A DNA stretch of 60,542 nt from a virus. The position numbers and the translations under genes are program-made. The stretch lies in IMG/VR virus record IMGVR_UViG_3300027721_000017. One strand, written 5' to 3'. Shown here piece after piece: positions 22,326-55,759 of the stretch; within the stretch, counting starts at the first letter, position 1, and the number at the start of each line of letters is the position of its first letter. The notes beneath the pieces were generated by a model. It worked only from the letters and a program-made list of their open reading frames with translations, had not been told where the DNA came from and searched no databases.

Positions 22326-22340
22326 GCCTGGAGTATAGGG
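22326..22340 (-). promoter_or_regulatory. Minus-strand CCCCTATACTC box 6 nt upstream of ATG 22325
   Basis: Read on the minus strand: cccctatactccaggcATG. Confidence 0.45.
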
Positions 22341-22360
22341 GAGCCGAAGCTCCCCGGCGA

Positions 22361-23056
22361 CTAGCGACGGTTCTTCTTCTCGAAGAAGCTCGGCTTGGCG
22401 GCGGGGGCTGCTTCAGGAGCAGCCTCGGGGGCTTCCTCCTCTTTCGCCTCGCTGGCAGGCGCGACGACCTCAGGCTCCACAGGCTGCGTGACGACAGGCT
22501 CCGGCGTCGGAGCGGGAGGGGGAGGAGCCACAGGCTCTGGGGGCGCCGCCACCTTCGCCACTTCGACGACAGGGGACGTCGTGCCGACGCTGAAGTTGAG
22601 CCAGCCTGCGCCCTTGAGCTTCTCGAGTCCGGGAGTCAGAAGTCGAAGCTGGCCCTCAGTGACCTCTACCGTCTTTGTCTCTTTCGGCGCCAGCGGGAAC
22701 GTCAGGTAGCCAGGGTCTCCGACCATGACGGTTGATGCGAACGTGCTCGTGAGAGTCAGCTTAGGCATTGTTGATCCTTTGTTTGGGCGCACTGCGCAGG
22801 TGACACAAGGCTCATCATATCGTCGAAGGAGATACAAGAGAAACTCTTTTACGTGTTCTCGGCGGTACAACTCCGCTAGGGGAATTCCGTTTTCTACGGC
22901 GTGATCTATGAGGTTGAAGAAATGATCTACCCTCTCTTCCGGGGAGAGTTTTAGGTCCTTCCAAGCGTAATTCCCGGTTATCGGCACGGCCAAGTATAGG
23001 GCTAGGCCTCCGGCGTTACCTCCTCCGCGGCTTTGGGGAACAAGAGGCTCCAGCAT
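22361..23056 (-). CDS. Hypothetical protein with a Pro/Ala/Glu-rich linker and basic C-terminus; start uncertain (internal ATG ~22768 possible)
   Basis: Track ORF. The listed start overlaps the upstream gene by 54 nt. Confidence 0.4.
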   Translation of the reverse strand: MLEPLVPQSRGGGNAGGLALYLAVPITGNYAWKDLKLSPEERVDHFFNLIDHAVENGIPLAELYRREHVKEFLLYLLRRYDEPCVTCAVRPNKGSTMPKLTLTSTFASTVMVGDPGYLTFPLAPKETKTVEVTEGQLRLLTPGLEKLKGAGWLNFSVGTTSPVVEVAKVAAPPEPVAPPPPAPTPEPVVTQPVEPEVVAPASEAKEEEAPEAAPEAAPAAKPSFFEKKNRR

Positions 23057-24123: not shown

Positions 24124-24177
24124 AGGAGCTCCTTTGACTACGAGGGAGCGCCCTTAGACACCATTTGTATATCAGTG

Positions 24178-26578: not shown

Positions 26579-26581
26579 ACG

Positions 26582-26935: not shown

Positions 26936-26970
26936 CCCGCAAGTGTAGGTCCGTACGCCCGTAAAAGGGG

Positions 26971-26990: not shown

Positions 26991-27011
26991 CTGCACCCAA
27001 AGGAGGCTGCA

Positions 27012-29409: not shown

Positions 29410-29420
29410 GGGCCCAGTTT

Positions 29421-29436
29421 AGCCTATACTGCCTGC
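29421..29436 (+). promoter_or_regulatory. CCTATACT box 7 nt upstream of ATG 29437
   Basis: agcctatactgcctgcATG. Confidence 0.4.
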
Positions 29437-30098: not shown

Positions 30099-30118
30099 GG
30101 TGAAGTACTACCTCGACA

Positions 30119-30598: not shown

Positions 30599-30612
30599 GG
30601 TCGAAGTATAGG
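30599..30612 (-). promoter_or_regulatory. Minus-strand CCTATACT box 6 nt upstream of ATG 30598
   Basis: Read on the minus strand: gagcctatacttcgaccATG. The divergent plus-strand GGTACAAGGGGAGAGG lies before ATG 30646. Confidence 0.4.
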
Positions 30613-30645
30613 CTCTCTCGGTGGTACAAGGGGAGAGGAAATCCC

Positions 30646-31229: not shown

Positions 31230-31554
31230 GCATCCTGTGAGCATCCTCAAGGAGAAGTTCTTCACGAAAGTGGAGCCGTTTTTCCATTGCTCTCGCATCA
31301 AGAGCGGGGACCTCAAGATCGAAATCGAGACTCCCCCTGAGCCGCTGCTTTCCCGGATGCTCAAGTTCAAGATGAAGTGCATCCGGTGTTCAAAGACGAA
31401 CCAGCCGTTTCGAGTTCGTCAGAAGTCTCCGTTGAGAAAGACCTCGACGGCGAAGCACATCTACTACGCCTGCTCCTGCGGGAATCTTGGCTGTTCCCGA
31501 GGGAACGCAGCACGAGATGAGTACGAAGCGGTCGGCAAGTATTTCAACGTCTAA
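31174..31554 (+). CDS. Cys-rich small protein (start probably internal, ~31241 GTG)
   Basis: Track ORF. CIRCSK...CSCGNLGC. Confidence 0.4.
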   Translation: MSRRTSSGWASPSATTTTEHPVSILKEKFFTKVEPFFHCSRIKSGDLKIEIETPPEPLLSRMLKFKMKCIRCSKTNQPFRVRQKSPLRKTSTAKHIYYACSCGNLGCSRGNAARDEYEAVGKYFNV

Positions 31555-31565
31555 CAAGGAACCCA

Positions 31566-32935: not shown

Positions 32936-32940
32936 AGGTT

Positions 32941-33013
32941 TGGGGACTAGCTCAATTGGTAGAGCGCGCGGCTCTGACCCGCGAGGTTTCAGGTTCAAGC
33001 CCTGAGTCCCCAG
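32941..33013 (+). tRNA. tRNA-Gln (CTG anticodon)
   Basis: Acceptor tggggac/gtcccca. D-arm tagctcaattggtagagc. Anticodon stem-loop cgcgg-ctCTGac-ccgcg. T-arm tcaggTTCAAGCcctga. Confidence 0.8.
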
Positions 33014-33024
33014 TTGGTAGCACT

Positions 33025-33098
33025 GGGATCGTAGGCGAGCGGTCTAAGCCACCGACCTTTTAAGTCGATGATCGTGGGTTCGAATCCCACCGGTCCCA
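33025..33098 (+). tRNA. tRNA-Lys (TTT anticodon)
   Basis: Acceptor gggatcg/cggtccc (one G-U). Anticodon loop ctTTTaa. T-arm gtgggTTCGAATcccac. Confidence 0.7.
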
Positions 33099-33099
33099 C

Positions 33100-33171
33100 A
33101 GACGCGTAGCTCAGGGGTAGAGCGGCTGCCTTACACGCAGCGGGTCGGGGGTTCGAAGCCCTCCGCGTCTA
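33100..33171 (+). tRNA. tRNA-Val (TAC anticodon)
   Basis: Acceptor agacgcg/cgcgtct. D-arm tagctcaggggtagagc. Anticodon stem-loop gctgc-ctTACac-gcagc. T-arm gggggTTCGAAGccctc. Confidence 0.8.
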
Positions 33172-33172
33172 C

Positions 33173-33487
33173 ATGAAAAAGAGAGCATCTCCGCAACAGA
33201 TTTTCGCCGCCAAGCTGCGCGCAGCTGATGAAGCGTATGTACGGAAACACCGGAAGCCTTGCCAAGGGGTATTTATCGTTCCCCCGAGAGACAAGGTCTA
33301 CTCGTACCTGTCGAAGAAGTTCGACATTCCCTTTGGAGACGTTGGTTACTACTTCACGTATTCACGTTCATGCACACATGAGTGGAACGAGGGCGCTTGT
33401 TCGTTGTGCCCTGTTCCCGCGTGTTGTACAGGATCCCCATGCGCCCAGACACCAAACAAGTTATCATCGAAACGTCAATCGCGATGA
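33173..33487 (+). CDS. Hypothetical Cys-rich protein lying between tRNA genes (weak)
   Basis: Track ORF only. Confidence 0.3.
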   Translation: MKKRASPQQIFAAKLRAADEAYVRKHRKPCQGVFIVPPRDKVYSYLSKKFDIPFGDVGYYFTYSRSCTHEWNEGACSLCPVPACCTGSPCAQTPNKLSSKRQSR

Positions 33488-33537
33488 TCCCCGTCATCTT
33501 CGTAATTCTGTTGATGTTGTTCTGACCTCGTAGCATC

Positions 33538-33609
33538 GCGGGCATAACTCAGGGGTAGAGTCACAGCCTTCCAAGCTGTTGGTCGTGGGTTCGAATCCCA
33601 CTGCCCGCT
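33538..33609 (+). tRNA. tRNA-Gly (TCC anticodon)
   Basis: Acceptor gcgggca/tgcccgc. D-arm taactcaggggtagagt. Anticodon stem-loop acagc-ctTCCaa-gctgt. T-arm gtgggTTCGAATcccac. Confidence 0.85.
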
Positions 33610-33615
33610 CTCGCA

Positions 33616-33687
33616 GGCCCCATCGACTAAGGGCTAGGTCGCCACCCTTTCAAGGTGTGAATCCGGGTTCGAATCCCGGTGGGGTCA
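33616..33687 (+). tRNA. tRNA-Glu (TTC anticodon)
   Basis: Acceptor ggcccca/tggggtc (one G-U). Anticodon loop ctTTCaa. T-arm ccgggTTCGAATcccgg. Confidence 0.75.
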
Positions 33688-33806
33688 CATGTCCGAATGT
33701 CCGAAGCACAAGCACCTCACTGACAAACAGATCCAAGCGATAACGGAGACCGAGGCCGCGGTGTGCGCCTGGCTCTGGGTTCGCTGGTGGATCCTTCGAG
33801 GAACAA

Positions 33807-36735: not shown

Positions 36736-38826
36736 ATGATCCCGAACACCCAACTCCGGCTCGTGTCGTCGAGTCCTATCGCCGAGAGCGCCGAATTCGG
36801 CATCTCGATGAACGACACGGCTCACATCATGTCGATTCTCCGAGACCAGCTGTACTCGGATAAGATTCTCGCGGTTCTCCGCGAGTACGGCTCCAACGCC
36901 TGGGACGCCCACCGAGACGCCGGAAAGGCGGAGCTCCCCATCAAGGTGACGTTGCCCACGGCGATGGAGCCGACGCTGACAATCCGAGACTTCGGCCAGG
37001 GGCTCACTCCCGAGGGCGTCTTCAAGGTCTTTACGCAGTATGGCGCCAGCACGAAGCGGAACAGTGACAACTCCGTGGGCATGCTCGGCATCGGTTCGAA
37101 GAGCGGCTTCGCCTACTCCGACAGCTTCACCGTCACGTCGTACTGTGAGGGCATGAAGCGGACCTATGTTGCGGTCCTGGACCCGTCAGAGAAGGGGATC
37201 ATCAATCTTCTGTGCGCGGAAGGCTGTGGCGAAGAGACAGGGGTCGCGATTTCAATCGCGGTGCGGCCCGCGGACCTTCGCAACTTCGAGCACACCGCGA
37301 AGACGCTGTTCAAGTACTTCGTCCCACGCCCGGACATCAACACGGAGCTGCCCCAGCTTCCCCCGGCGCAATCGACTCTGAAGCACGGAGTCATCTACGA
37401 GAAGGAAGAGGGGTACTACAGCGACAACAAGTGGGTCGCTGTCATGGGGTGCGTTTCGTACAACGTCAACCTCGATCAGCTTCGAGGTATCGACGCTACG
37501 CCTGAAGGAGGAGTCGCTTCCTTCCTGAGCGGTATATCGGGGGCCCTCTACTTCGACATCGGAGAGGTGCAGGTCAGCGCCTCTCGCGAAGAGCTAAAGT
37601 ACAGCTCGGAGACCAAGCTGGCATTGGTCAAGAAGTTCAGCGAGCTCGTCGAAGAGTACGTGAAGAAGGCTCTTGACGACATCATGCTGAAGACGAACAC
37701 CCCTTGGGAACGCCGAGTCAAAGCCCAGGTTCTGGGCAAGCTTCATCTCCCGGTTCCTCAGGATACGAAGGACCTGCTCTCCACGAATGTGGCGCTGAAG
37801 GACAAAATCCCCGCGGGCATCGTCATCACGCAGAATCGTACGCACTGCACCAGCATCGCGGTCAACGAAGGAACTCGCTTCGTTCTGGTAGACGATCAGC
37901 GCGCCCTCCCCGGGTTTCAAGGAATGCACTACACCGATTACTTCATCCGAGCCGTAGACAAGGCGGGGCACTTCCGCACAGCGCACATCCAGTGGGATCC
38001 TATCGAGCTCAAACTCAAAGAGATGTGTAAGGCGGCGGACATCGAAGGTATTCCCGTCATCAAGCTGTCGTCTCTCCCGTGGACCACTCCGTCACGCAAC
38101 GCCACAGGGCGGACGATCAACCCGAAGCACCGGATGAAGGTCTTCAAGTTTCTGCCGGAGGAGGGCTACAGCAAACCCTGGTCCGACTCTTGGGAACCAG
38201 CGGACATCGTACCGTCGAAGGATGATGTGTTCGTCCTCATCCAGTGGTTCCAGACCCAAGGGTTCAACATGGGAGAGTACTACCGAGCGGACAAGGCACT
38301 GGCTGAGGCGTTCGGAGGAGCTCTCCCGACGATCTACGCCTACAAGACGACTGAGAAGAAGCCCGTTGAATCGAAGGACTGTCTGGGTACGTACTACCCG
38401 GATTGGCGCAAGAAGTGGGTCCCCACACTGCTCACGCAGCAAGTGAAGGATCAGTTCTCACTGCTCCAGTGGGTTCAGCTTGCCAACAGCTCGCCGCACT
38501 ACTGGCGGTATCGGAACGTGGACAAGAAGATCTACGACAAGATGGTGGCGGAGCTCGGAGAGACGCACCTCATCACACTGATGGTGAAGAACATCTACGA
38601 AGGGCAGGCGTACTTCAAGAAGTACCCGAAGTTGCAGCCCGCTCTCGCGCAGCTCGAGAACAGGGCGCCAGGCGTGACTGTCAAAGACAGCCCGGCGCAG
38701 AAGACGCTGGAGACGCTCACGAAGAAGTATCCGCTGCTCACCCTCGAGAACCTTTGCATCGCAGATGTTTGGGGAGAGCGCGCCGCGGACTGGGTGCAGT
38801 ACATCAAACTCATCGACAAAGGATAG
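36736..38826 (+). CDS. GHKL (Bergerat-fold) ATPase domain protein, 696 aa; possibly rIIA-like
   Basis: N box EYGSNAWDA. G1 IRDFGQGL. G2 GMLGIGSKSGFAYS (Hsp90/MORC-like order). AGAGGA RBS before ATG 36736. Size and domain order resemble T4 rIIA (about 725 aa, N-terminal HATPase) as recalled. Confidence 0.55.
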   Translation: MIPNTQLRLVSSSPIAESAEFGISMNDTAHIMSILRDQLYSDKILAVLREYGSNAWDAHRDAGKAELPIKVTLPTAMEPTLTIRDFGQGLTPEGVFKVFTQYGASTKRNSDNSVGMLGIGSKSGFAYSDSFTVTSYCEGMKRTYVAVLDPSEKGIINLLCAEGCGEETGVAISIAVRPADLRNFEHTAKTLFKYFVPRPDINTELPQLPPAQSTLKHGVIYEKEEGYYSDNKWVAVMGCVSYNVNLDQLRGIDATPEGGVASFLSGISGALYFDIGEVQVSASREELKYSSETKLALVKKFSELVEEYVKKALDDIMLKTNTPWERRVKAQVLGKLHLPVPQDTKDLLSTNVALKDKIPAGIVITQNRTHCTSIAVNEGTRFVLVDDQRALPGFQGMHYTDYFIRAVDKAGHFRTAHIQWDPIELKLKEMCKAADIEGIPVIKLSSLPWTTPSRNATGRTINPKHRMKVFKFLPEEGYSKPWSDSWEPADIVPSKDDVFVLIQWFQTQGFNMGEYYRADKALAEAFGGALPTIYAYKTTEKKPVESKDCLGTYYPDWRKKWVPTLLTQQVKDQFSLLQWVQLANSSPHYWRYRNVDKKIYDKMVAELGETHLITLMVKNIYEGQAYFKKYPKLQPALAQLENRAPGVTVKDSPAQKTLETLTKKYPLLTLENLCIADVWGERAADWVQYIKLIDKG

Positions 38827-38828
38827 CC

Positions 38829-40001
38829 ATGGCCACCGCCGCACTTCCGTTTACCCTCACGAACGAGTCGATCACCGTCGTCTACGAAGGAAAGCCTCAC
38901 GTCGTACAGAAGGGGGCTCCGCAGTTCAATGCACTGCGTAAAGCCATCATCGCTGAGGACTGGAAGGCCGTCCCGAAGAACCTCACCGTCGCCAAGAGCA
39001 TCAAGGATTGGGCGAAGGGGAAGTTCACGCTGAAGGGGGACAACTTCTACTTCGAGGGAGCTGCGATCCCGAACAACATCAACAGCCGCATCATCCAGAT
39101 GGCGACGAAGGGCGAAGACCCGACGCCGCTCTTCAAGTTCTGGGAGCGGCTGCAGAGGAACCCGTCGATGCGGTCGGTCCAGCAGCTCTGGCCGTTCCTC
39201 GAGCACAAGGGGATCCCTATCACCAAGGACGGAACGTTCCTGGCGTACAAGGGGGTCAAGAACGACTTCAAAGACGCTCACACGGGGACCATCGACAACA
39301 AGCCGGGCGTCGTGAATGAGATGCCTCGGAACAAGATCTCCGACGACCCCAATGAAGCCTGCCACGAAGGCTTCCACGTCGGAGCTCTCCGCTACGCTCA
39401 GAGCTTCTCTCAGCGCGTTGTGGTCTGCGAGGTAGACCCGGAGAACGTGGTCTGCGTGCCGTACGACTCGAGTCAGGAGAAGATGCGGGTCTGCAAGTAC
39501 CTGGTCCGCGGCAACCACAACGGAGAGCTCCTGCCCTCGACGACGTTCGAGGAAGACGCTCCTCGGGGCGATGCGTCGTACGAGCATGGGCATGACGTTC
39601 CTAAGGACTACGACCCGGAGAACGACTTCCTGGCTGAGCCGTGCGAGGAGTGCGGGGCGAAGATGCCTCCGGAGTACCTCGACGTGGACTGCTCGTACCA
39701 CCTGGTCGAGTGCTCGAAGTACGACGAGTTCACGCCCGACGATGAGCCGGAGGAGAAGAAGCCCGCCAAGAAGGTGAAGGGCAAGGATAAGAAGAAGGCG
39801 CACAAGGCGCTCAAGAAGGAAGGGAAGAAGCTCGCCGCGAGCTTCGACCGTCTGAAGAAGATGACGATGGCCGACTTGATGAACGAGTCACTCGACACCC
39901 TGCGCGACTACGCAGGCAAGGGGTTGAAGATCGTCGGGGCTTCGAAGGTTCCCGGTGGGAAGACGGCGCTGGTGTCCGTCATCCTGAAGGTCCGCGGCTG
40001 A
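38829..40001 (+). CDS. Hypothetical protein (390 aa) immediately downstream of the GHKL ATPase; candidate rIIB-like partner; Lys-rich C-terminal tail
   Basis: ATG 2 nt after the upstream stop. Assignment is by synteny only. Confidence 0.35.
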   Translation: MATAALPFTLTNESITVVYEGKPHVVQKGAPQFNALRKAIIAEDWKAVPKNLTVAKSIKDWAKGKFTLKGDNFYFEGAAIPNNINSRIIQMATKGEDPTPLFKFWERLQRNPSMRSVQQLWPFLEHKGIPITKDGTFLAYKGVKNDFKDAHTGTIDNKPGVVNEMPRNKISDDPNEACHEGFHVGALRYAQSFSQRVVVCEVDPENVVCVPYDSSQEKMRVCKYLVRGNHNGELLPSTTFEEDAPRGDASYEHGHDVPKDYDPENDFLAEPCEECGAKMPPEYLDVDCSYHLVECSKYDEFTPDDEPEEKKPAKKVKGKDKKKAHKALKKEGKKLAASFDRLKKMTMADLMNESLDTLRDYAGKGLKIVGASKVPGGKTALVSVILKVRG

Positions 40002-45609: not shown

Positions 45610-48600
45610 TTACGCACGCAGCCCGACCACGAAGCGGGTCAACCGGAATCGGCGGTCACCGTAAATCTGGTACGTCACCGGCCCAGCGTCGGCGGTGAAA
45701 GAGACCGCCGTCCCGTCGTAGTGGTTCTTCACTGTGATGGACGTTGAGCTCGAGTAGGTTTGGATCTCGTAGATGCCGGTGTTCACCCCAGAGACGATGT
45801 AGAGCAAGCGACCAACATCGTCAGACGTGAAGCCAGTTCCGGTGAGGACTCCGTTTCCACCAGCGATGACCCCGTCGGCCCTCTGGAAGCCGGAGCCGAT
45901 GTCTTCCGAGAAGAGCCGGAACGTGCCGCGGCTGTCGTGGCACAAGTCCCCCGTTTGAACCGGATAGGTGCCGAGGCTGCCAGTATCTCCTGCCACCGTG
46001 TTTCCAGGACGCGTCAACCGGGCCGTCTTTGTGGCCTCTGTCGTAGCGGACGCTGTGTCGTACGCAGGACGACGAATCTCCCACGTCCTGTTAGCCCTGA
46101 CAGGCTGCAGCGACTCGGCGATGGTCATCGTCGTCAATGAATCGTTGATGGTCGCCAGGGTGAACTCTCGGAGATCCCCAAGGAAGACAATCTTGTCCGG
46201 GGACACACCGCCGACGCTGATGCCCTCGTGAATCGAGAAGGTGCGCCCGGTCTCTGTTGGGGAGAAGAGCGTTGAACCCGTACCCGACGGTGGACCAACG
46301 GTAATCTGTGTGGCGCTCACTCGAGAGAGGATTCGGTAGTACCCCGCGTTCGTCCCGTCCTGGACCCACAGGAATCGCCCCGGCGTGGCACTGGCAGGGA
46401 AGTCCGAACCGGCGGAGTTGAACGTATTCCCCCCGTTGATCGGGTTACCGTCCGTTTTCGTCGGCCCCACCTGGAAGCCGAGGAACTTGTTTCCGCCGGT
46501 TGTCAGGGTGAGCGTGTCCCCGTTTGCTCCACCGAGGTCAACGTTCCCGTTGACACCGGAAACCCCGGTCATGGCATCGTTGGCGGACTGAATGAAGTCA
46601 GCCCTGTTGATGTGGTTGAAGAGGAAGTCGGCGTTGGTCCGTGCCTCATCCACCACAGTGTTCTTGCTCGTCGCGAGTCGGTTTCCGGCTACGTCGTAGA
46701 ACTCCCAGGTGGAGATGTCGTGGTCAGCGCGGCCGCTATCAGTCGCGAACCGGGGGATAGCAGTCCACTTCCAATATCGTCCTGTCCGTGCGGAGGATGA
46801 AAGGTCGCTGAAGTCCGAGTAGACCTTTACGTCTTGGTTGGAATAAATCTCTCGTCCGTCACCGCTCAACCACGTCCCGTTGTTCTTGACGTCGGGAGGA
46901 GCCGCGTCTGCGCTGTAGGAGATGCGCTTCACCAAGTCCCAGGTCGGCTTCACGCAAATCCAACTCTGATTCGTGATGAGCGCGTTCGGAGGAATCCGAA
47001 GCTGCATCGTTGTGGGCGTGAGCAGACGCTCAACGCACAGTCGGTGCCCGCCGTTGGCCACGACGATCATGTCCTCTTCCCGCACGGCATCCTTGATGCG
47101 GTAGGTGACTACGGCGCTCGAAAGCGTCCACGTCTTCGCGGTTTGGTCCAGGTTCTGAACCGTGATGACCGAAGGGCTGGTGTACCCGATGACGCGGAAG
47201 GCATTGTTCGGAGCGGTAGACTCCGCGCCAGCACCCGCCGTGAGCTCTACAACCTGCCCCACGTGGGACGCCAGGAATTGGGCGTTGGTCGTATCTGTGA
47301 GGGTATTCCCGCCTGACGTGATGAGCCCCACCGCCGGAGTCGTCGGCGTGAGACTGATCGCGCCTAGGAAATCGCCAGACAGCAACGCATTCGTGTTAGC
47401 GACGTTCGCTGTGCAGTTGAAAGTCCCTGCGCCGGATGTTCGGACACCCGGGGTTGGTACAACGAACCAGGTAGCGGCGTAGTTGTTCTGAGTGGCCCCA
47501 GAGGCGTTCGTATAGCTGATCGACGACGAGCTGTTGAAGGCCGTGATGGTGAACGTCCCGTTGTTGGCCGCTACCGAAGCACCAGTGATGACGATGTACT
47601 TTCCGACATCCCCCGCCACAAACGGCGTGCCGGTGGCGTTCAACGTCATCGTCGGTGTGGAGAAGGACAGCCCCGTCGTTCCGTTGCCCACACCAGACTT
47701 CGTGGCGGAGCCCAGAGGAGTTCCCCCCGCGTCCGTCGCCTTGTAGATGTTCCCGATGAGGCCGCAGCTGGTAAGCGTGTTCATAATGCGCGCTTCGGCC
47801 GAAAAGGTGTGGACCCGCAGAACGGCGTAGCCGACCTGTACGTCCTTTCCGAAGTCGACCATCAGCGAGTAGCCGAGGACGGTGTTGGCGGTGATGCCAT
47901 TCCAACCCGTGTCACTGCCAGTATTAGAGTAGGCAGTTCCATGTCCGACCACGCCGTCCATGCGCTTCCCGATGATGCCGTCGAGAATCTGGCGGCCGTT
48001 GGTCAACTCGGCCGCGGGAAGAGCTCGGTGGTGCGCGAGAGCCGCGTCGTACTGCCCTGTTTGTTCTGGGTAGTTTTCGAAGTACACCTTCGAAGCAAGA
48101 CTCCCAGGGACGGCCAACGGATTCGCGGTGGCGAACTTTCGGGGCTCGTCATTCTCGTGGAGGCGAGTCTTGAAGTGGTACGCCTCGTACGTGAAGCCGG
48201 TGATGTCCTGCGTGTTGTCCTTGCCCACGCCATCGGCCAGCATGATGGTCATCTCTTCTGGTCCGGCGTTTGAGCCAACCGAGCCGTAGTCCCAGACGGT
48301 GTACGTCAGCGACCCCGCCGTGGCCAGGGCCGAGAACGTGGCTCCGGCCATGGTCTTGAGCGTCACGGAGACGCCCGGAGTGACTACGTTGATCTTGTAG
48401 ATGCCTGCGTCTGTTCCAGTTTCGATGCGCAGCGTACGACCCGCGTCACCAGAAACGAAGCCGCCATCTGTGAAGACAGCGGAGCCGGTGGTGGTTCCGC
48501 CGCCAGAAGAAGTGACGCGCACCTGGGCCATACGCCCCAGGAACTCATTGTTGGCGGGCGTGGCCGGAACAAGGATGCCTTGGCGGTAGAAGCCAATCTT

Positions 48601-51600
48601 CACGCCGTACATCACCTCTTCGTGCGCGGAGTGAATCGGCTTGGCCGCACAGAGGGGATTCGTCGTGTCGGCGAAGGACTTGTTCGGCGTCCCCGCGAGA
48701 GCCACTTCTCGTGGAGTCCAAGCGGAGCCGGTCCACTGGTAGGTGACCTCGACAGCGCCAAGCCACATACGTGGCCCCGCGTTCCATGCACCGTAGCTAA
48801 GGTCCAGGAACCATCCGACGCTGTCGAAGACTTTGTTCCGCCCGGTGCTGCCCGTGGTCTGGTTTGAGACATTCTCATCCCGCCACACGAATGTGTCAGC
48901 TTCTCGGGAGTAGTACGCAGTGTCGACGTTCCCGGTGCTCCCGGCCCATAGTTGCGTTTGAACGCGTCCGTCTGGGTGTTCGAAGAAGTTTCTTGTGATG
49001 CGGCTGTTCTGGGGGGAGTACGAACCATCAGAGCGCGGAGCGTAGGAGGAGACGATGAAGAAGGTTCCGGCGTAGTTGGCCTGGGTCGCCATCGTCGCGC
49101 CGGTGTTGTTGTTGTAAACGATCTGCGACGAGCTGTTGAAGGCCGTGATGGGGAACACCCCGTTGTTGCCCGCAGTCGACGAACCCGTGATGACGATGTA
49201 CTTGCCCACGTCACTGGCCACGAAAGGCGTCCCGGTGGCGTTCAATGTCATGTTGGGCGCGGAATACGTGAGAGCAGTGGAAGCGCTCCCGGTCCCCGTC
49301 GTCAGAGGGGGCCCCGCCCAGTACGCGGTGTTTTCTGCGCCCCAGTACCGCTTCATCGTCGCGGGAGCGAACGTGCTCTTGACGATCTTGAGGTGGCCGT
49401 TGTCCGAGCCGACCCAGATTTCATCGAACTTTGAATTCACCAAGATGGCGTTGAAGCTCGTCGGAGTCGCCGGGTTCACTGAAGTAGCCGCAGTTCCACC
49501 AACGAGAACGCTCCCAGGAGTCGTCAAAACGTTAGTGTCAGTGATGAGAATGGCGGTGTGCGCGTTGGTCGCGACGTTGTACTTGTTGATTTGCTGCGTC
49601 GTGTCGTTGGACAGCCAGTAGACGTCGCCGTTGGCGGGGTCGATGGCTACTCGCTGGTTTTCGCCGTGGATCGCCTGCACATTGCAGTCGGCCCCGAGGC
49701 CCGCCGTTGAACTGAAGGTCCGGTTGAGGAACGTGCCAGGAGCCAGCGACTCGAAGTAGTTGATCTTGTTCAGCCCGGTCGTGGCGTTATCGTAGAACAT
49801 GTACAGCCGGTCGCCGATGTCCAGGTCGATGCCTCCGTCACCCCCGAAAGTGACCGCGTCCCCGGCGAGCGTCGTAACGGTGATCGTGTCCGCGTCTACC
49901 ACCGTGGCGATTTTGTAGATGCCTGCGTCCGCTCCGGCTACGCGGATAACGCGCCCAATGTCAGAGCTCGTCATCGTAGTACCTACGATGTTGTCGATCT
50001 GATTCGACGCGCCAACAGTGTCTCCGGCGAATGCGCGATTCGCTGTTTTATCAGCGACGATACCCGCGACATTGGAGTCGGGAACGCCAAGGCGCGTCCA
50101 TGTCCCAGTGAACGCCTCAGCTACGCCTGCGTGGTTCTGGTACGTGATGACCGTTGGGCTGGTGTACCCGGTGATGAGGAACGTCCCATCATTTGCGCCC
50201 GTAGTGGCGCCTGAGATGGTGATCGACTGCCCCACCATCCGCGCGTTGAACACCGCGCCAGCGTCAGTCAGCGTCATGCTCGGCGCGGTTCCGCCGATGG
50301 TATCGCCCGTCCCGGTCCACGCTGCGCCGCCCTGGTCCTCGGTGTACTGACGCGTTGTCAGGTCCGGCTTGATGATGATGACGCCGCCGTTGCCCAGGGA
50401 CGGGTGCTGCACAGCGAAGTAGACCCAGTTGCCGGTTCCTTGAGTCCCACCACGAATTCGGTCGCCAGAAGCAAGGACCAGTGGCGGAGACAGGAAGGAC
50501 GAGTGGCCCGCCGTACCAAGGTAGTTTGCCACCTCACGTGGAGACTCAATAGTTCTCCACCGCCAGTGCATGATGCACGAGTCGTTGTTGGCGTTGGTGT
50601 GGCCAATCCAGCAGCGCTGGTTGGCTTCATCCAGGACCATCGCGTTCGCGCCTCCCGCCCCTGTACTGGTGTACGGGAACGTGTGGCCTGGGAAGTTGGC
50701 GCTGCCCCCTTCGTTCACGGTATTCTTGTACAAGGCGAAGTCGTAGCCCAGCCCCTGGTCGTAGTCGCCGTGAGTCCACGGCTTCATACCGATGGTGTAG
50801 CTCCCTTGTTGTTCGGCGGCGGCGGCGACTTCTGTGGAGCCAGTCTTCTCGATCTTCACCTTCATGATGAAGCTTGACCGGATTGGTTGAGTCGTTCCAG
50901 CAAAAAATCCGGGCTGGAATCTCCCGCTGGTCTCGACCTGTCCCGCGGACAGCGGGATGATGCTTATTTCGTTGAAGTAGGTCGTGCGGCCGGGACCGAT
51001 GTACAAGTCGTTTCCCGCGATAGTCGCCGCGGCTTGCCCCACAAAGGGCGTACCATTCAGATTTCGCAGCCAGAGCTTGTTATTGGCGAAATCGACGTGT
51101 TGGATGAAGTAGAACCCAGCATCGGCGCCTGTGGCGATGCGCAGAACTTGCCAGCGACCAGGCGTGACGTACTTGTTGTCCCAGAATCCAGCATTCGTGA
51201 AGGTGACGTAGTCCCTACCTACAAGCGTCGTGAGGGTGGAGTTGGCAGCGCCTCCGGCGAGGTACATCGGGTGGGCGTAAACGATGCCGATCTGCGTGTA
51301 GTCGGCGGGTAGGTCCGACGCCGAGACGAGCGAGTCTCCTCCCCAGGCGCTTTTGTCTACGCCAACTGTGTTGTCGTAAGCAGAGATACCGGCGTGGACT
51401 CGCGAAATAGCGGAAGACGCGATTGCGGCGATGCTCCCCGTGGCCCTAAACTTGAGGTAGTCCAGCGTCGATATGGCCGTCATCTGAACCGGGTACGCGG
51501 TAGGCTGAGCCGCCGCCCAGTCAGCGTGCCCGACGGTGATGTCGTTGTCGTCCAGCAACCCTCCTTGTTTGAAGGGGTACAGGCGCATCTGGTAGCTCTG

Positions 51601-51756
51601 CCCAGCGCTGTTGGTGTCCCAGAAGTTAATGGTCCGGGCGAGGGTGCGGCTGCGGAAGGCGATGTTGCCCGCCTGCAGGTCTTCCTTGTTGGATGACTTC
51701 GGATTCTCCTTGTCGGGAAGAATCGTCATGAGCCCGGTGATTTCTTTGACTGACAT
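45610..51756 (-). CDS. Giant virion structural protein (about 2048 aa) with five or more internal ~60-aa repeats (G..V.ITG....NNG.F.IT.F/Y.S...I.Y.N)
   Basis: GAGGGA RBS 8 nt before ATG 51756. The upstream gene stops at 51771. Uninterrupted frame of 6.1 kb. Confidence 0.55.
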   Translation of the reverse strand: MSVKEITGLMTILPDKENPKSSNKEDLQAGNIAFRSRTLARTINFWDTNSAGQSYQMRLYPFKQGGLLDDNDITVGHADWAAAQPTAYPVQMTAISTLDYLKFRATGSIAAIASSAISRVHAGISAYDNTVGVDKSAWGGDSLVSASDLPADYTQIGIVYAHPMYLAGGAANSTLTTLVGRDYVTFTNAGFWDNKYVTPGRWQVLRIATGADAGFYFIQHVDFANNKLWLRNLNGTPFVGQAAATIAGNDLYIGPGRTTYFNEISIIPLSAGQVETSGRFQPGFFAGTTQPIRSSFIMKVKIEKTGSTEVAAAAEQQGSYTIGMKPWTHGDYDQGLGYDFALYKNTVNEGGSANFPGHTFPYTSTGAGGANAMVLDEANQRCWIGHTNANNDSCIMHWRWRTIESPREVANYLGTAGHSSFLSPPLVLASGDRIRGGTQGTGNWVYFAVQHPSLGNGGVIIIKPDLTTRQYTEDQGGAAWTGTGDTIGGTAPSMTLTDAGAVFNARMVGQSITISGATTGANDGTFLITGYTSPTVITYQNHAGVAEAFTGTWTRLGVPDSNVAGIVADKTANRAFAGDTVGASNQIDNIVGTTMTSSDIGRVIRVAGADAGIYKIATVVDADTITVTTLAGDAVTFGGDGGIDLDIGDRLYMFYDNATTGLNKINYFESLAPGTFLNRTFSSTAGLGADCNVQAIHGENQRVAIDPANGDVYWLSNDTTQQINKYNVATNAHTAILITDTNVLTTPGSVLVGGTAATSVNPATPTSFNAILVNSKFDEIWVGSDNGHLKIVKSTFAPATMKRYWGAENTAYWAGPPLTTGTGSASTALTYSAPNMTLNATGTPFVASDVGKYIVITGSSTAGNNGVFPITAFNSSSQIVYNNNTGATMATQANYAGTFFIVSSYAPRSDGSYSPQNSRITRNFFEHPDGRVQTQLWAGSTGNVDTAYYSREADTFVWRDENVSNQTTGSTGRNKVFDSVGWFLDLSYGAWNAGPRMWLGAVEVTYQWTGSAWTPREVALAGTPNKSFADTTNPLCAAKPIHSAHEEVMYGVKIGFYRQGILVPATPANNEFLGRMAQVRVTSSGGGTTTGSAVFTDGGFVSGDAGRTLRIETGTDAGIYKINVVTPGVSVTLKTMAGATFSALATAGSLTYTVWDYGSVGSNAGPEEMTIMLADGVGKDNTQDITGFTYEAYHFKTRLHENDEPRKFATANPLAVPGSLASKVYFENYPEQTGQYDAALAHHRALPAAELTNGRQILDGIIGKRMDGVVGHGTAYSNTGSDTGWNGITANTVLGYSLMVDFGKDVQVGYAVLRVHTFSAEARIMNTLTSCGLIGNIYKATDAGGTPLGSATKSGVGNGTTGLSFSTPTMTLNATGTPFVAGDVGKYIVITGASVAANNGTFTITAFNSSSSISYTNASGATQNNYAATWFVVPTPGVRTSGAGTFNCTANVANTNALLSGDFLGAISLTPTTPAVGLITSGGNTLTDTTNAQFLASHVGQVVELTAGAGAESTAPNNAFRVIGYTSPSVITVQNLDQTAKTWTLSSAVVTYRIKDAVREEDMIVVANGGHRLCVERLLTPTTMQLRIPPNALITNQSWICVKPTWDLVKRISYSADAAPPDVKNNGTWLSGDGREIYSNQDVKVYSDFSDLSSSARTGRYWKWTAIPRFATDSGRADHDISTWEFYDVAGNRLATSKNTVVDEARTNADFLFNHINRADFIQSANDAMTGVSGVNGNVDLGGANGDTLTLTTGGNKFLGFQVGPTKTDGNPINGGNTFNSAGSDFPASATPGRFLWVQDGTNAGYYRILSRVSATQITVGPPSGTGSTLFSPTETGRTFSIHEGISVGGVSPDKIVFLGDLREFTLATINDSLTTMTIAESLQPVRANRTWEIRRPAYDTASATTEATKTARLTRPGNTVAGDTGSLGTYPVQTGDLCHDSRGTFRLFSEDIGSGFQRADGVIAGGNGVLTGTGFTSDDVGRLLYIVSGVNTGIYEIQTYSSSTSITVKNHYDGTAVSFTADAGPVTYQIYGDRRFRLTRFVVGLRA
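47530..47730. repeat. Direct DNA repeat copy B within the giant gene (approximate coordinates)
   Basis: As copy A. Confidence 0.5.
49130..49330. repeat. Direct DNA repeat copy A within the giant gene (approximate coordinates)
   Basis: Antisense track ORFs 49136-49621 and 47534-47746 translate to near-identical peptides (MKAVMGNTPLLPAVDEPVMTMYLPTS... and MKAVMVNVPLLAATEAPVMTMYFPTS...), which reveals a duplication about 160 bp long. Confidence 0.5.
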
Positions 51757-51770: not shown

Positions 51771-52367
51771 TTAGTAGATGGGGCTCATGCTGATCTTGTA
51801 GATGACTTCCAGCGTCTGAGTGTTCGTCTGAGTTTTGGGTGGGGTCATCAGCGCATACGCCATCACCCATTTCGCGTACCCAGTACCGAGGCCAGCGCTC
51901 CACCCCGACAGGAAGATAGTCCCGAGGTTTCGGTTGCCTTGCCCAGAGCCGTAGTTAGCCGAGATGGTAGAGTTGCAGGTGAACGTCTTGGTGTGGGTTA
52001 CCACGTTGTTCGTCGGTGTCAGGTTTCCGGAGACAAAAAGTTGGGCGCTGTCGGATGCGATGCTGCTTCGCGCGGACATGGGCGGCTCGGTGGAAGAGGA
52101 AAACCCGAGCTGCGCTATATTGAATCGGTAGTCCATCCAGATGCGCCGCCCAGAATCCGTGATGAGGTTCTCCCCTTGGTGAGACCAAGCAACCTCGCCA
52201 GATTCCGCGTCCTTCGCGACAATTTCGAAGGAGCCTTTCATCTCAATGCCGCCCTGAAGAATCGCCTCTCTCGTGGCGTTTCGGTTTTCAGGTCCTCCGC
52301 GACGAAGACGAGCCAATACCTCTCGGGCTTCCTCTGGGTTGACAACAGACACCTTGTAGTCGCTCAT
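51771..52367 (-). CDS. Hypothetical structural-block protein (198 aa)
   Basis: Track ORF. ATGA overlap with the upstream gene. Confidence 0.5.
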   Translation of the reverse strand: MSDYKVSVVNPEEAREVLARLRRGGPENRNATREAILQGGIEMKGSFEIVAKDAESGEVAWSHQGENLITDSGRRIWMDYRFNIAQLGFSSSTEPPMSARSSIASDSAQLFVSGNLTPTNNVVTHTKTFTCNSTISANYGSGQGNRNLGTIFLSGWSAGLGTGYAKWVMAYALMTPPKTQTNTQTLEVIYKISMSPIY

Positions 52368-54145
52368 ATGATCCTCGTCGTTCCTGCCTGAGTCCAGGTG
52401 CCTGCGCCGTCTGCCTGTCCGCTACCGCCAGGGCCACCGGCCCCATCGCTGAGCAGGTTTGTATCAGGGTCGACAGCTGAAAACTTCACCGGCGCTCGAT
52501 TCACGAAACTGAAGTCGTCACCCCTCGGCTCCCGCTGAGCAGTCCCCTCACTAACCCACGCAAAGTCTGTGAGGTCTCCGTCTCGGCCGAAACTCAACCA
52601 GTAGTCGGTGAAGAGTACCCCCTCATTGAAGCGGTCCACAATGACGCTGGAATACACCCCAGACGGGCGCCCCATCACGTCGAGAGCTTGGGCGAAGTAG
52701 CCGCGTCCGTACACCCGCGTGGCGACAGGCACGAAGAAGGTGTCCGCCCCAGGGAAAATCAGCGTTGGAGCCGCAAGGGGAACCGCCACGCCGCCGTCCA
52801 GCCGGTACACGATGTACCCCGACGTCTCAGAATCGTTGGGGCCGACGAAGACACCGAACCCATCCGGAGAAGGTCTCTCAACGAAAGCAATCGACACGGG
52901 GCTTGGTGTTCCAAGCGTGTACGTCCCTTGATCTCCAGACCCCTCACCAACCAGGTTTGTGTCTGGGTCCGTAAAGCCAATCTTGACGGGCTGGCGGTTG
53001 ACGTACGAGAAGTCGTCGTCTCTTGGATCTCTCTGCGCAGAACCTTCTCCGACGCGCCCACCATCGACGTTTTCGAGCGACTTGATGATGCCGCCTGTGT
53101 CCGCCGTGAAAGGCATGTTCATGGTGGCGGGGTCATCTGTGCTGTTCGCCGTCAACTTGAAGATACGGTTCCCCGCGAAGAAGAAGACGTACAAAGTGTC
53201 GGTGGCGGCGTCGTAGAGAAGCTCGGGACGCCCTGTGTTTGACGAGTTGCCTCCACCTGGGGTCGTCAGCCGTGTCTCTGGACCGAACTGCCCGAACGGG
53301 CTCTCTTTTACGACATAGAGATCCCGGTCCCTCTCGACGCACCACCATCGAGTTCCAGAGCCCATCTCGTACGAGGACACCGCAACGACATTGTCTGTAG
53401 CGGTGAGCTTCGTCGTCGCGGAACGAAGAGCGGCTTGGTAGTAGGCCGCGATGAGATACGGTTGGTAGGGGCGTGAGACATCGTGAACTGAGACCTCATC
53501 CGCCAACCCATCCCAGAAAGCGGAGTCCGCGACCCTCTGTAGCCGCCCTACGCTGAACACCGCCGTAATGTTCGTCACGGGCGGCGGAACTGGCAGCGAT
53601 GAGGGAATCCCATTCACCGTAACGGACGCCGCAGGCACCAACTGATTGTCGATGTAGATCTCGATGTCGCGGTTTACTCCGTTTACGCTCCGACGCACGG
53701 CGATAGAGTAAAACTGGTTCAACTTGATGGTGGCCGCGGCGGTCGTGACCAAGACTTCGCCCGCAGCGGCGGTGTGCCGGTACTCCAGAGCCCCGTTCGA
53801 TTTGACCGAGAGGGCGTAGAGAACGCCGTCACTCGTAGTGGGGCCGCCACAAGAAACAATGCAGCGCAGCTGAGATCCGGTTGGGTTGATGGAGTTCATC
53901 TTCACCCAACTGATGAGAGTCAGCCCCGCGGTAAGACGAAGAAGAGGGTTCGAAATTGAGGCAAAGGACGATGTTCCGTTCAGGCCTCGCGCTCCACCAA
54001 CTCGGCCAAGAGTCGCGGAGCTCGCGCTTGTGACCGTCAGGTGAAGTGCGTTCGCCGTCGCATCGCGCGCAGCATCAGTCTCCAAGGCCTCATCGAAGCC
54101 CCAGTAGCCGATGAGATTGGCGTCGAGCGAAAGGCGAACAGCCAC
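52364..54145 (-). CDS. Structural protein (593 aa) with putative N-terminal concanavalin-A-like/LamG lectin-fold domain
   Basis: N-terminal LIGYWGFDE...ALHL...G..G.NG.SSFASI...LTAGLTLISWVKMNS resembles the LamG/ConA-like pattern as recalled. Confidence 0.4.
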   Translation of the reverse strand: MAVRLSLDANLIGYWGFDEALETDAARDATANALHLTVTSASSATLGRVGGARGLNGTSSFASISNPLLRLTAGLTLISWVKMNSINPTGSQLRCIVSCGGPTTSDGVLYALSVKSNGALEYRHTAAAGEVLVTTAAATIKLNQFYSIAVRRSVNGVNRDIEIYIDNQLVPAASVTVNGIPSSLPVPPPVTNITAVFSVGRLQRVADSAFWDGLADEVSVHDVSRPYQPYLIAAYYQAALRSATTKLTATDNVVAVSSYEMGSGTRWWCVERDRDLYVVKESPFGQFGPETRLTTPGGGNSSNTGRPELLYDAATDTLYVFFFAGNRIFKLTANSTDDPATMNMPFTADTGGIIKSLENVDGGRVGEGSAQRDPRDDDFSYVNRQPVKIGFTDPDTNLVGEGSGDQGTYTLGTPSPVSIAFVERPSPDGFGVFVGPNDSETSGYIVYRLDGGVAVPLAAPTLIFPGADTFFVPVATRVYGRGYFAQALDVMGRPSGVYSSVIVDRFNEGVLFTDYWLSFGRDGDLTDFAWVSEGTAQREPRGDDFSFVNRAPVKFSAVDPDTNLLSDGAGGPGGSGQADGAGTWTQAGTTRII

Positions 54146-54148
54146 GGG

Positions 54149-54625
54149 TCACGCCCCTGCCTGAATGTACGTCCCGCCCCGCTCTTTGAAATTGGGCTCC
54201 ATGGCGTAGTTGCAGTGATCTTGGTGTAGCGCTGACGAGGTCAGTTGATTGGGCACGAGCTCGAGCCGGTACCGCTTGGCCCAGCGCTCCCCGCTCCCCA
54301 TTACGAAGAGTTCAAGTCGACTGACCTCTGGTACCCAAAGCGCAGAGCCTTGGAAAAAACCTCCCTCCGCGGTGTCGAAGGGGAGGCAGAGTTCTGGGTC
54401 CTTGCCCGAGAGCTCAAGGGTGTCGGCGTCGGCACCGAGCTCAAGGCCCACAGACACGATGGATCCGTTCGTTTTCTTTTGAAGGCGAAGAAAAGCTCCC
54501 GCGCCATTGGTCAGAATGACGTCGCTCACGTTGAGGGAACGAGCAACCGTCCACCCGAGGGACGTCATCAAGAAATTCTTCAGCGCTGAGTGAAAAAGCA
54601 GAACGCTGGCGAAGGTTTCGTTCAT
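54149..54625 (-). CDS. Hypothetical structural-block protein (158 aa)
   Basis: GGAG 8 nt before ATG 54625. TATACT box 24 nt upstream. Confidence 0.5.
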   Translation of the reverse strand: MNETFASVLLFHSALKNFLMTSLGWTVARSLNVSDVILTNGAGAFLRLQKKTNGSIVSVGLELGADADTLELSGKDPELCLPFDTAEGGFFQGSALWVPEVSRLELFVMGSGERWAKRYRLELVPNQLTSSALHQDHCNYAMEPNFKERGGTYIQAGA

Positions 54626-54834
54626 TGCGTCTCCACGGTGGACCGCCTGAGTATAGGCGAGGAGGCGCTGTCGTCACTCCTCTTTTGCGTACCTGCGTTG
54701 AAAAATACGGTCATCGCGCAGACCCCGCATCTCGTCGTGTACCTCCGCGTGGCAGTTAAGGCACAGCAGGTCGCACTTTTTGATCTCTGACCGCAGACTC
54801 TTATGCGTGTAGGAAACTTTTGAGAGGCCGATTA

Positions 54835-55326
54835 TCACAAGCCTACGGCGTACTGGAAGTGCATCGCGTCCTTCGTGCCCTTCCAAGCACCGCCCCAGTT
54901 CCACCCCTGCTCCGTGAAGGCTGCGACCCACTCAGGGGGGAGGTCCGTCACGAGGGTCTTGGCGACAGGGTTCTTGTCCCAGTTGACGTCGAAGGCGCAG
55001 CCCCAGGAGTGCGTGCTCAGCGGCTTCGAGGGGTCGTGCATCATGTGCCGGGCGCTGTGGCCTCCCAGCATTCGAACCTTGTACTTGGGAGCCCGCTTGA
55101 TCGCTTCCTCGAGGCAGACCTCGAAGATTGGTGCGACGAGACGATGCAGCTGGATGTTGCAGCCCGTTTTGCAGACGTTCCGCAGGACCACCAGGTTGTC
55201 TTTCTCCCAGGTGTCATCGATGTCGACCTCACCCTTGGAGAGCTCGGTGAACTTGAAGTCGCCGTAGCGGGCTTTGAGTTCCTTGAAGCCGTTCGGCGGG
55301 ATGAACTGGTAGGGGATGAGGGGCAT
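54835..55326 (-). CDS. Peptidase M15 (VanY / L-alanyl-D-glutamate peptidase-type) endolysin
   Basis: Zn-binding motifs SxHxxGxAxD (STHSWGCAFDVN) and DAMHFQY. ATG 55326 lies 8 nt downstream of a TATACT box. Confidence 0.8.
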   Translation of the reverse strand: MPLIPYQFIPPNGFKELKARYGDFKFTELSKGEVDIDDTWEKDNLVVLRNVCKTGCNIQLHRLVAPIFEVCLEEAIKRAPKYKVRMLGGHSARHMMHDPSKPLSTHSWGCAFDVNWDKNPVAKTLVTDLPPEWVAAFTEQGWNWGGAWKGTKDAMHFQYAVGL

Positions 55327-55342
55327 GACCCTAGAGTATAGG
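55327..55342 (-). promoter_or_regulatory. Minus-strand CCCCTATACTC box 8 nt upstream of the endolysin ATG (putative -10 driving a leaderless transcript)
   Basis: Read on the minus strand: cccctatactctagggtcATG. Confidence 0.45.
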
Positions 55343-55513
55343 GGATGCACTCTGACGAAAAGGCGAGACTTCGACTCATCCGAGAGCTGGAAGAGCGTCG
55401 ACGGAAGCCCCGAGGGCTAGGGGACGTCGTTGCGAAGATGACGACGGCGCTGGGTCTCAAGACCTGCGGGGCCTGTCAACGCCGACGAGAAGCGTTGAAC
55501 CGGCTGTGGAAGC

Positions 55514-55759
55514 TCAATCGGGAGTAGGTTGACACTCGCCGCAGGCGCCCTCGTGCTCCGGGTCTTTCGCAGTCCCGCCGCAACGACCGCAAGTGATCCG
55601 GGCCTTCACCGTCTTCCGTTCGGTTCTCACTTTACCGGGTAAATAGTCAGACGCCTCGAAGAGGCACTTTCCGTCCACGTGCTGGGTCACATCCAGCCCG
55701 CAGTTCCCGCAGGACCGCTGCATCACGGGCATGCGTATCTTGTAGATTCGTTCACTCAC
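55514..55759 (-). CDS. Small zinc-ribbon protein with CCHC module (CGNCGLDVTQHVDGKCLFEASDY) plus a second CxxC...CxxC
   Basis: Track ORF. Confidence 0.5.
   Translation of the reverse strand: MSERIYKIRMPVMQRSCGNCGLDVTQHVDGKCLFEASDYLPGKVRTERKTVKARITCGRCGGTAKDPEHEGACGECQPTPD

Follow-up and report, generated by a model that had tools for sequence, protein, structure and literature searches.

The window analysed here is a stretch of 60,542 nucleotides (nt) of the virus record IMGVR_UViG_3300027721_000017 and covers about one third of the whole phage genome. It carries TATACT boxes a few nucleotides upstream of start codons, which an earlier note on this DNA had read as signals for leaderless late transcripts. 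Upstream of the endolysin gene, positions 55342-55327 of the minus strand read CCTATACTCTAGGGTC and run directly into ATG 55326-55324. The naming of this gene as an endolysin was confirmed by its Pfam and PHROG matches (Table 1). Genes were called from codon usage by a simple procedure, which yielded 86 genes and in which the choice of start received a small bonus for a Shine-Dalgarno sequence (SD) or a TAnnnT hexamer. In about ten of these roughly 86 genes, roughly one in nine, 5-8 nt (mode 6) separate the end of the hexamer from the start codon.

Table 1. Boxes near gene starts and associated features of the window (aa, amino acids; tmRNA, transfer-messenger RNA).
Feature	Position	Strand	Context
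TAGGGT box	55980..55985	-	between divergent genes, 6 nt before ATG 55973 (73-aa gene)
CCTATACT box	55335..55342	-	hexamer 55340-55335; 8 nt before endolysin ATG 55326
Endolysin gene, 163 aa	54835..55326	-	Pfam Peptidase_M15_4, E = 5.9e-16; endolysin PHROG matches
CCTATACT box	54650..54657	-	hexamer 54655; 24-nt leader 54649-54626, then ATG 54625 (158-aa gene)
CCTATACT box	30605..30612	-	hexamer 30610; 6 nt before ATG 30598 (159-aa gene, 30119-30598)
CCTATACT box	29423..29430	+	TATACT 29425-29430; 6 nt before ATG 29437 (152-aa gene)
TAAACT box	29416..29421	-	6 nt before GTG 29409 (111-aa gene, 29074-29409)
TACACT box	26942..26947	-	6 nt before GTG 26935 (117-aa response-regulator receiver gene); kept in L023
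CCTATACT box	22993..23000	-	hexamer 22998; 5 nt before GTG 22987 (208-aa gene, 22361-22987)
Hairpin GGGGAGC-UUCG-GCUCCCC	22338..22355	-	abuts the 22337 box; -24.1 kcal/mol for a 65-nt stretch, z = -1.9
CCTATACT box	22332..22339	-	hexamer 22337; 6 nt before ATG 22325 (151-aa gene, 21870-22325)
CCTATGCT box	16683..16690	-	hexamer 16688; 16-nt leader containing GGAGG, then GTG 16666 (154-aa gene)
TAAACT box	10563..10568	+	36 nt upstream of the tmRNA gene 10605-10975; kept in L080 and L081
CTATACT box	10068..10074	+	TATACT from 10069; 7 nt before ATG 10082 (137-aa gene)

Compared with dinucleotide-preserving shuffles, CCTATACT is over-represented in the window (6 sites, 0.26 expected; none of 100 shuffles reached 6). 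The same was seen for TATACT (7 copies, 2.58 expected) and for CTATACT-N4-9-ATG (5 sites, 0.02 expected). All seven TATACT copies are oriented towards a gene start; six lie 5-8 nt from an ATG or GTG and the seventh lies 24 nt away. The boxes close to start codons are thus real and commoner than the earlier note had stated, three starts with variant boxes coming on top of the seven copies. The spacers it gave for the endolysin gene (8 nt), 22325 (6 nt), 30598 (6 nt) and 54625 (24 nt) were recovered, and that of 29437 is 6 nt, not 7. A search for further motif copies near ATG codons added two TATACT sites missed earlier in the window (10069 on the plus strand, 22998 on the minus strand) and nothing beyond it: no new start-adjacent box was found in ~10 kb past the left window end in each of two close relatives (~20 kb in total). 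When predicted starts were taken as reference, a TAnnnT hexamer began 11-14 nt before 10 of 86 (1.09 expected, p = 2e-7), with a positional peak at -12 (seven starts exactly there). The background rate, calculated over all ATG and GTG triplets of the window, is 1.6%.

When k-mers were tested without bias for enrichment in the 40 nt before each gene, two signals only emerged, the SD AAAGGAG and CCTATACT. A good AAAGGAG-type SD precedes most other genes, and the spacers of the start-adjacent boxes contain no GGAG, GAGG or AGGA, in agreement with the earlier statement that these genes have no SD. The genome therefore uses two alternative start architectures. In the aligned sites the information is confined to the hexamer and the C just before it (~8 nt conserved, none upstream of -14). 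One longer sequence had been described as common to the starts at 55326, 22325, 30598 and 29437. This could not be upheld, as the exact 11-mer CCCCTATACTC occurs at two of the four only (55344-55334 and 22341-22331), with a one-mismatch copy at 54659-54649; GCCTATACTT stands in its place at the 30598 site and GCCTATACTG at the 29437 site. The CCCC at the 22337 site is accounted for by the hairpin 22338-22355, which probably is a terminator or 3' stabiliser of the upstream gene. CCCC as part of a general terminator hairpin was rejected, since a comparable hairpin was found at 22337 only and at none of the other sites. Seven of ten boxes are TATACT, a C precedes the hexamer at nine of ten aligned window sites (the leadered 54655 included), and TAnnnT fits all ten start-adjacent sites and both leadered sites. 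Judged from these alignments, the motif would be better given as C(C)-TAnnnT, with TATACT as the apparent optimum, than as CCCCTATACTC.

Related phages were found by protein-anchored searches of IMG/VR. These are IMGVR_UViG_3300037493_005727 (190 kb; loci L001, L023, L062 and L080), IMGVR_UViG_3300036766_000644 (188.6 kb; L061 and L081) and IMGVR_UViG_3300049844_000277 (168 kb, ~50% GC in the locus read; L082). A blastn search with 52000-58000 against 50,697 phage records gave no match, nor did an exact 25-mer search of IMG/VR. Queries for the rest of the genome reached unrelated contigs only with polA of Rctr197k, and none with a protein from the right end of the window. In the ortholog comparisons, T1, A2 and T6 of the hexamer were identical in 36/36 and the middle positions in 28/36, the 12 nt upstream of the hexamer were identical at 92/144 positions, and spacers of equal length at 25/43 (58%). 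Spacer lengths in the window and the relatives taken together were 6 nt (14 times), 7 nt (three times), 8 nt and 5 nt. Hexamer variants in the relatives comprise TATATT, TAAGCT, TAGGCT and TACTCT.

The single loci give the same picture. TATACT is found before the 10082 gene in four genomes (among them L001, L081 and L082, the last at 50% GC), with the spacers cattcac, ttccctc, tcccccc and tttaacgac. In the ortholog of 29437 the distance is unchanged, the hexamer is TATATT and the spacer has diverged; the ortholog of 22325 retains TATACT with a spacer of 7 nt. At the 22987 ortholog the arrangement is TATATT, 6 nt and ATG, so that the start codon has switched from GTG to ATG while the N-terminus is conserved. 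The 29409 ortholog in L023 retains hexamer and distance (spacers gggccc and ggtctc). Upstream of the endolysin ortholog in L062 the sequence is unrelated, yet TAAGCT lies 6 nt before the ATG, and the orthologs of 55973 have TAGGCT (L062) and TACTCT (L061), both at 6 nt as is TAGGGT in the window. Protein N-termini are conserved from the proposed starts. In more distant relatives the start-adjacent 7-mers had no motif in common. Positions T1, A2 and T6 of a -10 element are those read by sigma region 2. Their conservation at a fixed distance, as opposed to the drifting middles and spacers, therefore matches the profile expected of a -10 element that sets the start point. The boxes are a real regulatory feature that is maintained by selection.

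Four divergent intergenic regions hold boxes (29410-29436, 30599-30645, 26936-27011 and 55974-56035). In the first, of 27 base pairs (bp), two boxes stand back to back: TATACT occupies 29425-29430 and AGTTTA, which is TAAACT on the minus strand, 29416-29421, and 6 nt separate each of them from the start codon of its gene. This arrangement is kept in L023 and would represent a very compact natural bidirectional expression unit for two leaderless genes, which may be of use in synthetic biology. The 30610 box lies within a 47-bp region shared with a divergent gene starting at 30646 and is likewise kept in L023. Two boxes are internal to same-strand arrays: 22998 follows directly on the stop codon of the upstream gene (23002), and 10069 lies inside the 3' end of the upstream open reading frame (ORF; 9864-10085), just before the tmRNA/transfer RNA (tRNA) cluster.

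Headed by the boxes at 55340 and 54655, an array of ~15 kb runs leftward from the endolysin gene over the 158-aa protein, a ConA-like 593-aa protein and a 2048-aa protein to further large proteins without database matches. Late expression is plausible for this endolysin-to-fibre array. A second leftward array (26935-19776) stands behind the box at 26947, with the response-regulator receiver gene first, followed by genes for a SNF2 helicase and a HAD phosphatase. The label "late" of the earlier note is thus justified in part only: it suits the endolysin/fibre-like array (55340, 54655), genes of lysis and structural type being clearly driven by that pair alone; the other boxes head the helicase array, the pre-tmRNA gene and small genes. 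Because boxes precede the helicase array, the response-regulator gene and the pre-tmRNA gene, the class extends beyond late genes. The first gene of the second array (26582-26935, minus strand) encodes a stand-alone receiver protein (117 aa, Response_reg 2.1e-16) and is a leaderless candidate (TACACT, 6 nt, GTG); the Pfam domain begins at about residue 4, a boundary that fits the start GTG 26935. As to the 2048-aa ORF (45610-51756, minus strand), it has no Pfam or PHROG match, is rich in T, G, A and S with repeats inside, and shares 75% identity with the L061 counterpart. The protein probably is a giant fibre or adhesin. The real start of this ORF is ATG 51756 (SD agaggga), not GTG 51903.

For about ten genes the boxes fix starts that longest-ORF or SD-based callers would misplace, among them ATG 30598 instead of 30655 and GTG 22987 instead of ATG 23056. 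The endolysin gene is another example: its true start is predicted to be ATG 55326 and not the upstream in-frame GTG 55350, and the protein matches its L062 ortholog at 94% identity from residue 1 onwards. In addition, the boxes give a first transcription-unit map for an uncultured ~190-kb phage without a cultured relative.

Boxes of the same kind were also found at a greater distance from the start. At 54655 the leader contains a GGAG SD (54634-54631) 6 nt before the start, and box, leader and SD are all kept in L062 and L061. The box at 16688 corresponds to CCTATACT in L001 (-9956) and would be a leadered member of the same promoter class. The TAAACT at 10563-10568 is a candidate promoter of the tmRNA gene. 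Use before an RNA gene and before SD-containing leaders indicates that the box is a transcription signal and not a translation signal.

We consider it likely (probability roughly 0.75) that the boxes act as sigma-70-family promoters consisting of a -10 element only, with +1 on the first base (A or G) of the start codon, so that the messenger RNAs (mRNAs) are leaderless. This reading is based on the fixed spacing (mode 6), the invariance of T1, A2 and T6, the positions at operon heads and in divergent regions, and the occurrence of the box in SD-leader and tmRNA settings as well. RNA polymerase (RNAP) would open the DNA at the hexamer, and the transcript would begin at the A or G of the start codon or at most 1-2 nt from it. 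The resulting mRNA would have neither a 5' untranslated region nor an SD, and ribosomes would bind the 5'-terminal AUG or GUG. The same box 16-24 nt upstream would give an ordinary short-leader mRNA with an SD (54655, 16688). The polymerase most probably would be the host core enzyme. As its specificity factor, the host primary sigma factor, to which we give somewhat better than even odds, is favoured over a sigma-like factor encoded by the phage, which seems rather unlikely. No conserved -35 element was found in the aligned sites, and a -35/-10 consensus scan of 20000-32000 gave 1 match (1.9 expected), which is not above chance. The central argument of the earlier note, that a box this near the AUG implies a leaderless mRNA without SD, is supported by all the available sequence evidence.

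Several points weigh against this interpretation. The start of transcription at the start codon is inferred, not observed, as are the sigma factor, the polymerase and the mode of translation; the same is true of leaderless translation by the host, above all at the three sites with GUG. The boxes at 10069 and 22998 lie in or directly after a gene of the same strand, so that read-through or coupling (an ATGA overlap at 10082) could express the genes behind them. Moreover, the 10069 hexamer overlaps Leu-Tyr codons of the upstream ORF and its conservation could partly reflect coding constraint. The bonus for TAnnnT in the choice of starts inflates the positional test somewhat; the TATACT counts are independent of gene calling. 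Finally, the middle positions and the upstream C are tighter than in the host TAnnnT of high-GC bacteria, which could point to a phage-specific factor.

The last point leads to an alternative in which the box is read by a specificity factor of the phage (gp55-like as in T4, or a divergent sigma factor) or by a phage RNAP, the leaderless transcripts forming one temporal class under phage control. The consensus is indeed tighter than a generic TAnnnT (TATACT in 7/10, C before 9/10), middle positions carry little information in high-GC host signals, and a -35 is absent as is generally known for T4 late promoters. Phages of the wider lineage encode a sigma-70-like factor, such as gp118 of PaBG (PMC7412058), whose homologs adjoin the VWA gene in L037, L038 and L060. 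However, Pfam and PHROG searches of essentially all window ORFs (partly concatenated; about one third of the genome) revealed no sigma, gp55-like or RNAP domain. A PaBG-type sigma gene is likewise missing from the window, the loci of the close relatives and Rctr197k; tblastn with PaBG gp118 and a hidden Markov model built from gp118 and two homologs gave matches in L037, L038 and L060 only. Orthologous sites drift among TAnnnT variants (TAAGCT, TAGGCT, TACTCT), which fits a generic -10 reader better, and the 8 conserved nt are far fewer than in T7-type promoters. On balance, we regard reading by a phage factor as unlikely.

A role as a translation signal on longer mRNAs, with an A/U-rich unstructured patch replacing the SD, for instance via ribosomal protein S1, would be in line with the box standing at the position of a ribosome-binding site (RBS), with genes that lack an SD, and with 10069 and 22998 lying inside same-strand arrays where read-through is expected. 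We judge it very improbable: what is conserved is T1, A2 and T6 and not A/U richness, G/C-rich middles (TAGGGT, TAGGCT, TAAGCT) being tolerated, and the box also occurs 16-24 nt before SD-bearing starts (54655, 16688) and ~36 nt before the non-coding tmRNA gene. Furthermore, the divergent regions of 27-76 bp need a promoter and no other candidate was seen in them, and the equivalent motif of D. radiodurans is not replaceable by an RBS (PMC12340547). Scarcely any credence is left for the box being an operator, a site of a phage or host DNA-binding regulator or some other repeated DNA signal that lies near starts incidentally. A short repeated 8-mer confined to regulatory regions would suit an operator, and the window does encode an XRE-type helix-turn-helix protein and the receiver-domain protein. 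Operators, however, may lie at varying positions and as a rule are palindromes or repeats, whereas the box is strictly co-directional with its gene at a distance fixed within +/-1-2 nt, shows no dyad symmetry and no second half-site, and has the substitution pattern of a -10 element.

Further promoter classes were considered, and three of them were rejected. For a sigma-54 promoter, TGGCAC-N5-TTGCW gave 12 matches in the window with two mismatches allowed (10.8 expected), none of them at the boxes, and the aligned sites show no conserved GG-N10-GC (-24/-12). A T7-like promoter or that of a jumbo-phage multisubunit RNAP does not agree with ~8 conserved nt (as against ~20 bp) or with the lack of an RNAP domain among the ORFs of the window; a DxDxD RNAP motif is missing from the 2048-aa ORF. 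An archaeal TATA box with B recognition element was dismissed because the box lies 6 nt from the start codon and not 26-30 nt before the start site, and because the phage has a bacterial tmRNA, SD-led genes and a peptidoglycan peptidase. With regard to a T4-type late promoter, the consensus here is TATACT, not TATAAATA, and no sigma or gp55-like match was obtained among the window ORFs, which represent about one third of the genome.

Start-adjacent boxes of another type were noticed in Virus Rctr197k (GenBank KX853510; L065-L068), a distant relative with nine sites of the form TGGCA(C/T)-N6-(T/C)GC-TATAAAGT-N5-ATG/GTG. The coordinates of TATAAAGT are 129920, 130539, 132964, 134257, 134895, 136013, 141085 and 141957 on the plus strand and 15582 on the minus strand, and each site lies directly before an ORF of 69-603 aa. 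TGGCAC-N5-nTGC corresponds in sequence and spacing to a sigma-54 -24/-12 promoter; in the window this motif is at chance level. Since 13-14 nt lie between the GC and the ATG, one would expect transcripts with no leader or with one of 2 nt. To our knowledge, no leaderless phage promoters of the sigma-54 type have been described. One might go further and see in CCTATACT a phage-controlled class with its own phage sigma factor or appropriator and, together with the Rctr197k boxes, a lineage of ~170-200 kb phages that wires accessory genes as leaderless monocistrons behind start-adjacent promoters, whatever the host sigma factor. If true, this would include the first sigma-54-dependent leaderless phage transcripts (in Rctr197k), but we hold this broader scheme to be quite doubtful. 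In L037 (8242-9273), L038 and L060 (11933-12904), which belong to more distant jumbo-phage relatives, the homolog of the PaBG sigma-70-like factor is encoded ~1 kb downstream of the VWA gene, the protein of which is 49-50% identical; the window has a tRNA cluster at this place.

To return to the -10-only promoters, their architecture is a testable clue to the host of the phage. Such promoters and leaderless genes initiated with GUG are efficient only in certain bacteria, for example Deinococcota and Actinobacteria. The conserved GTG starts hint at a host that may be good at leaderless initiation, and the preference for TAnACT, which resembles the D. radiodurans optimum, might serve as a host lead only. 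An endolysin scan of genome contigs for the host gave no match. When phages were searched by tblastn with the endolysin, helicase, ligase, RIIA and VWA proteins, the hosts were scattered (phages of Rhizobium, Streptomyces and Roseobacter). The VWA protein shares 58% identity with that of Virus Rctr197k and 45% with that of a Rhizobium phage, the M15 domain resembles domains in tape measure proteins of Rhizobium phages, and the helicase resembles those of Streptomyces, Listeria and Bacillus phages. Exact-protein look-up matched two short metagenome contigs only.

Several other genes of the window deserve mention. An 894-aa protein (13002-15686, plus strand) has domains of the major vault protein (MVP), namely MVP_shoulder (1.1e-22), Vault_3 and Vault repeat, an unusual feature for a phage; its best bacterial matches (41-42% identical) are in metagenome-assembled genomes of Myxococcota (Nannocystaceae, Myxococcales). 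Behind the tmRNA (10605-10975, plus strand; Rfam RF00023, 115 bits), whose tag peptide ends in ...FRAAA according to ARAGORN, tRNA-Met, Ser, Gln and Ala lie at 11146-12668. A tRNA with the anticodon TCA (33616-33688, plus strand), termed SeC by ARAGORN, is part of a second cluster that also has Gln, Lys, Val and Gly at 32940-33610; this tRNA would decode UGA and may be an opal suppressor. Recoding of stop codons was not evident, the large ORFs of the window being intact under the standard code. The rIIA-like and rIIB-like genes (36736-38826 and 38829-40001, plus strand; PHROG 612 at 5e-93 and PHROG 609 at 1.9e-65) form an adjacent pair such as is found in T4-like and many other large phages. 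A pyrimidine-dimer glycosylase of the T4 endonuclease V type (17890-18288, plus strand; Pyr_excise 4.2e-22) adjoins the gene of an ATP-dependent DNA ligase, and 23002-23499 on the minus strand encodes a PNKP-type HAD phosphatase. Glycosylase, ligase and phosphatase make up a small set of DNA-repair genes.

Among known systems, the architecture of the boxes closely matches that of the leaderless genes of Deinococcus-Thermus. In D. radiodurans, TANNNT was shown experimentally to be the -35-independent promoter of leaderless genes; it is mostly TACACT, lies 6-7 bp before the ORF and exists alongside a GGAG RBS motif (PMC12340547, 2025). This mode, in which the -10 region borders on the ORF, is described for D. 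radiodurans and D. deserti (PMC12340547; de Groot et al. 2014 cited therein). Shared features are the TANNNT hexamer (here TATACT, TACACT and TAAACT), its distance of 6-7 bp from the ORF, the lack of a -35, a separate set of genes with a GGAG-type RBS and the misannotation of gene starts that results. The differences are that we deal with an uncultured ~190-kb phage and not a cellular genome, that ~10% of the genes are concerned as against about a third, and that the middle of the hexamer and the C(C) before it are under tighter constraint. Zheng et al. (2011, PMC3160421) describe a TAnnnT ~10 bp before the translation start for high-GC Actinobacteria and for Deinococcus-Thermus, and mycobacteria need no more than a 5'-terminal ATG or GTG for translation, while E. 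coli is poor with GTG (Shell et al. 2015, PMC4633059). The position of TAnnnT is thus like that in actinobacterial and mycobacterial leaderless genes; the consensus here is stronger, and no evidence ties the phage to Actinobacteria.

Phage T4 resembles our phage in being a large lytic phage with rIIA and rIIB genes and in using a short -10-only consensus. Its late promoters have TATAAATA at -10 and no -35, depend on gp55, gp33 and gp45, and give mRNAs with SD leaders. Here the consensus is different and varies by the TAnnnT rule, the mRNAs would be leaderless, and the DNA that was available yielded no gp55-like gene. In lambda, the PRM-cI mRNA is said to be leaderless, as Shean and Gottesman reportedly found in 1992. 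Its transcript starts at the AUG as proposed here, but it serves a single regulatory gene from a full -35/-10 promoter that depends on an activator, in contrast to a family of -10-only boxes. For the Thermus phage phiYS40, Sevostyanova and co-workers are said to have found in 2007 that middle and late promoters consist of a -10 without a canonical -35, are used by the host RNAP and give many leaderless transcripts. It is likewise a large phage with -10 promoters in its later classes and leaderless transcripts, and it differs in its AT-rich, unrelated sequence and in that its temporal classes were measured. Our current understanding of transcription and translation is unchanged by these results. 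The mode of expression is already known from Deinococcus and mycobacteria, and what differs here is its setting, the tighter consensus and the ~10% share of genes.

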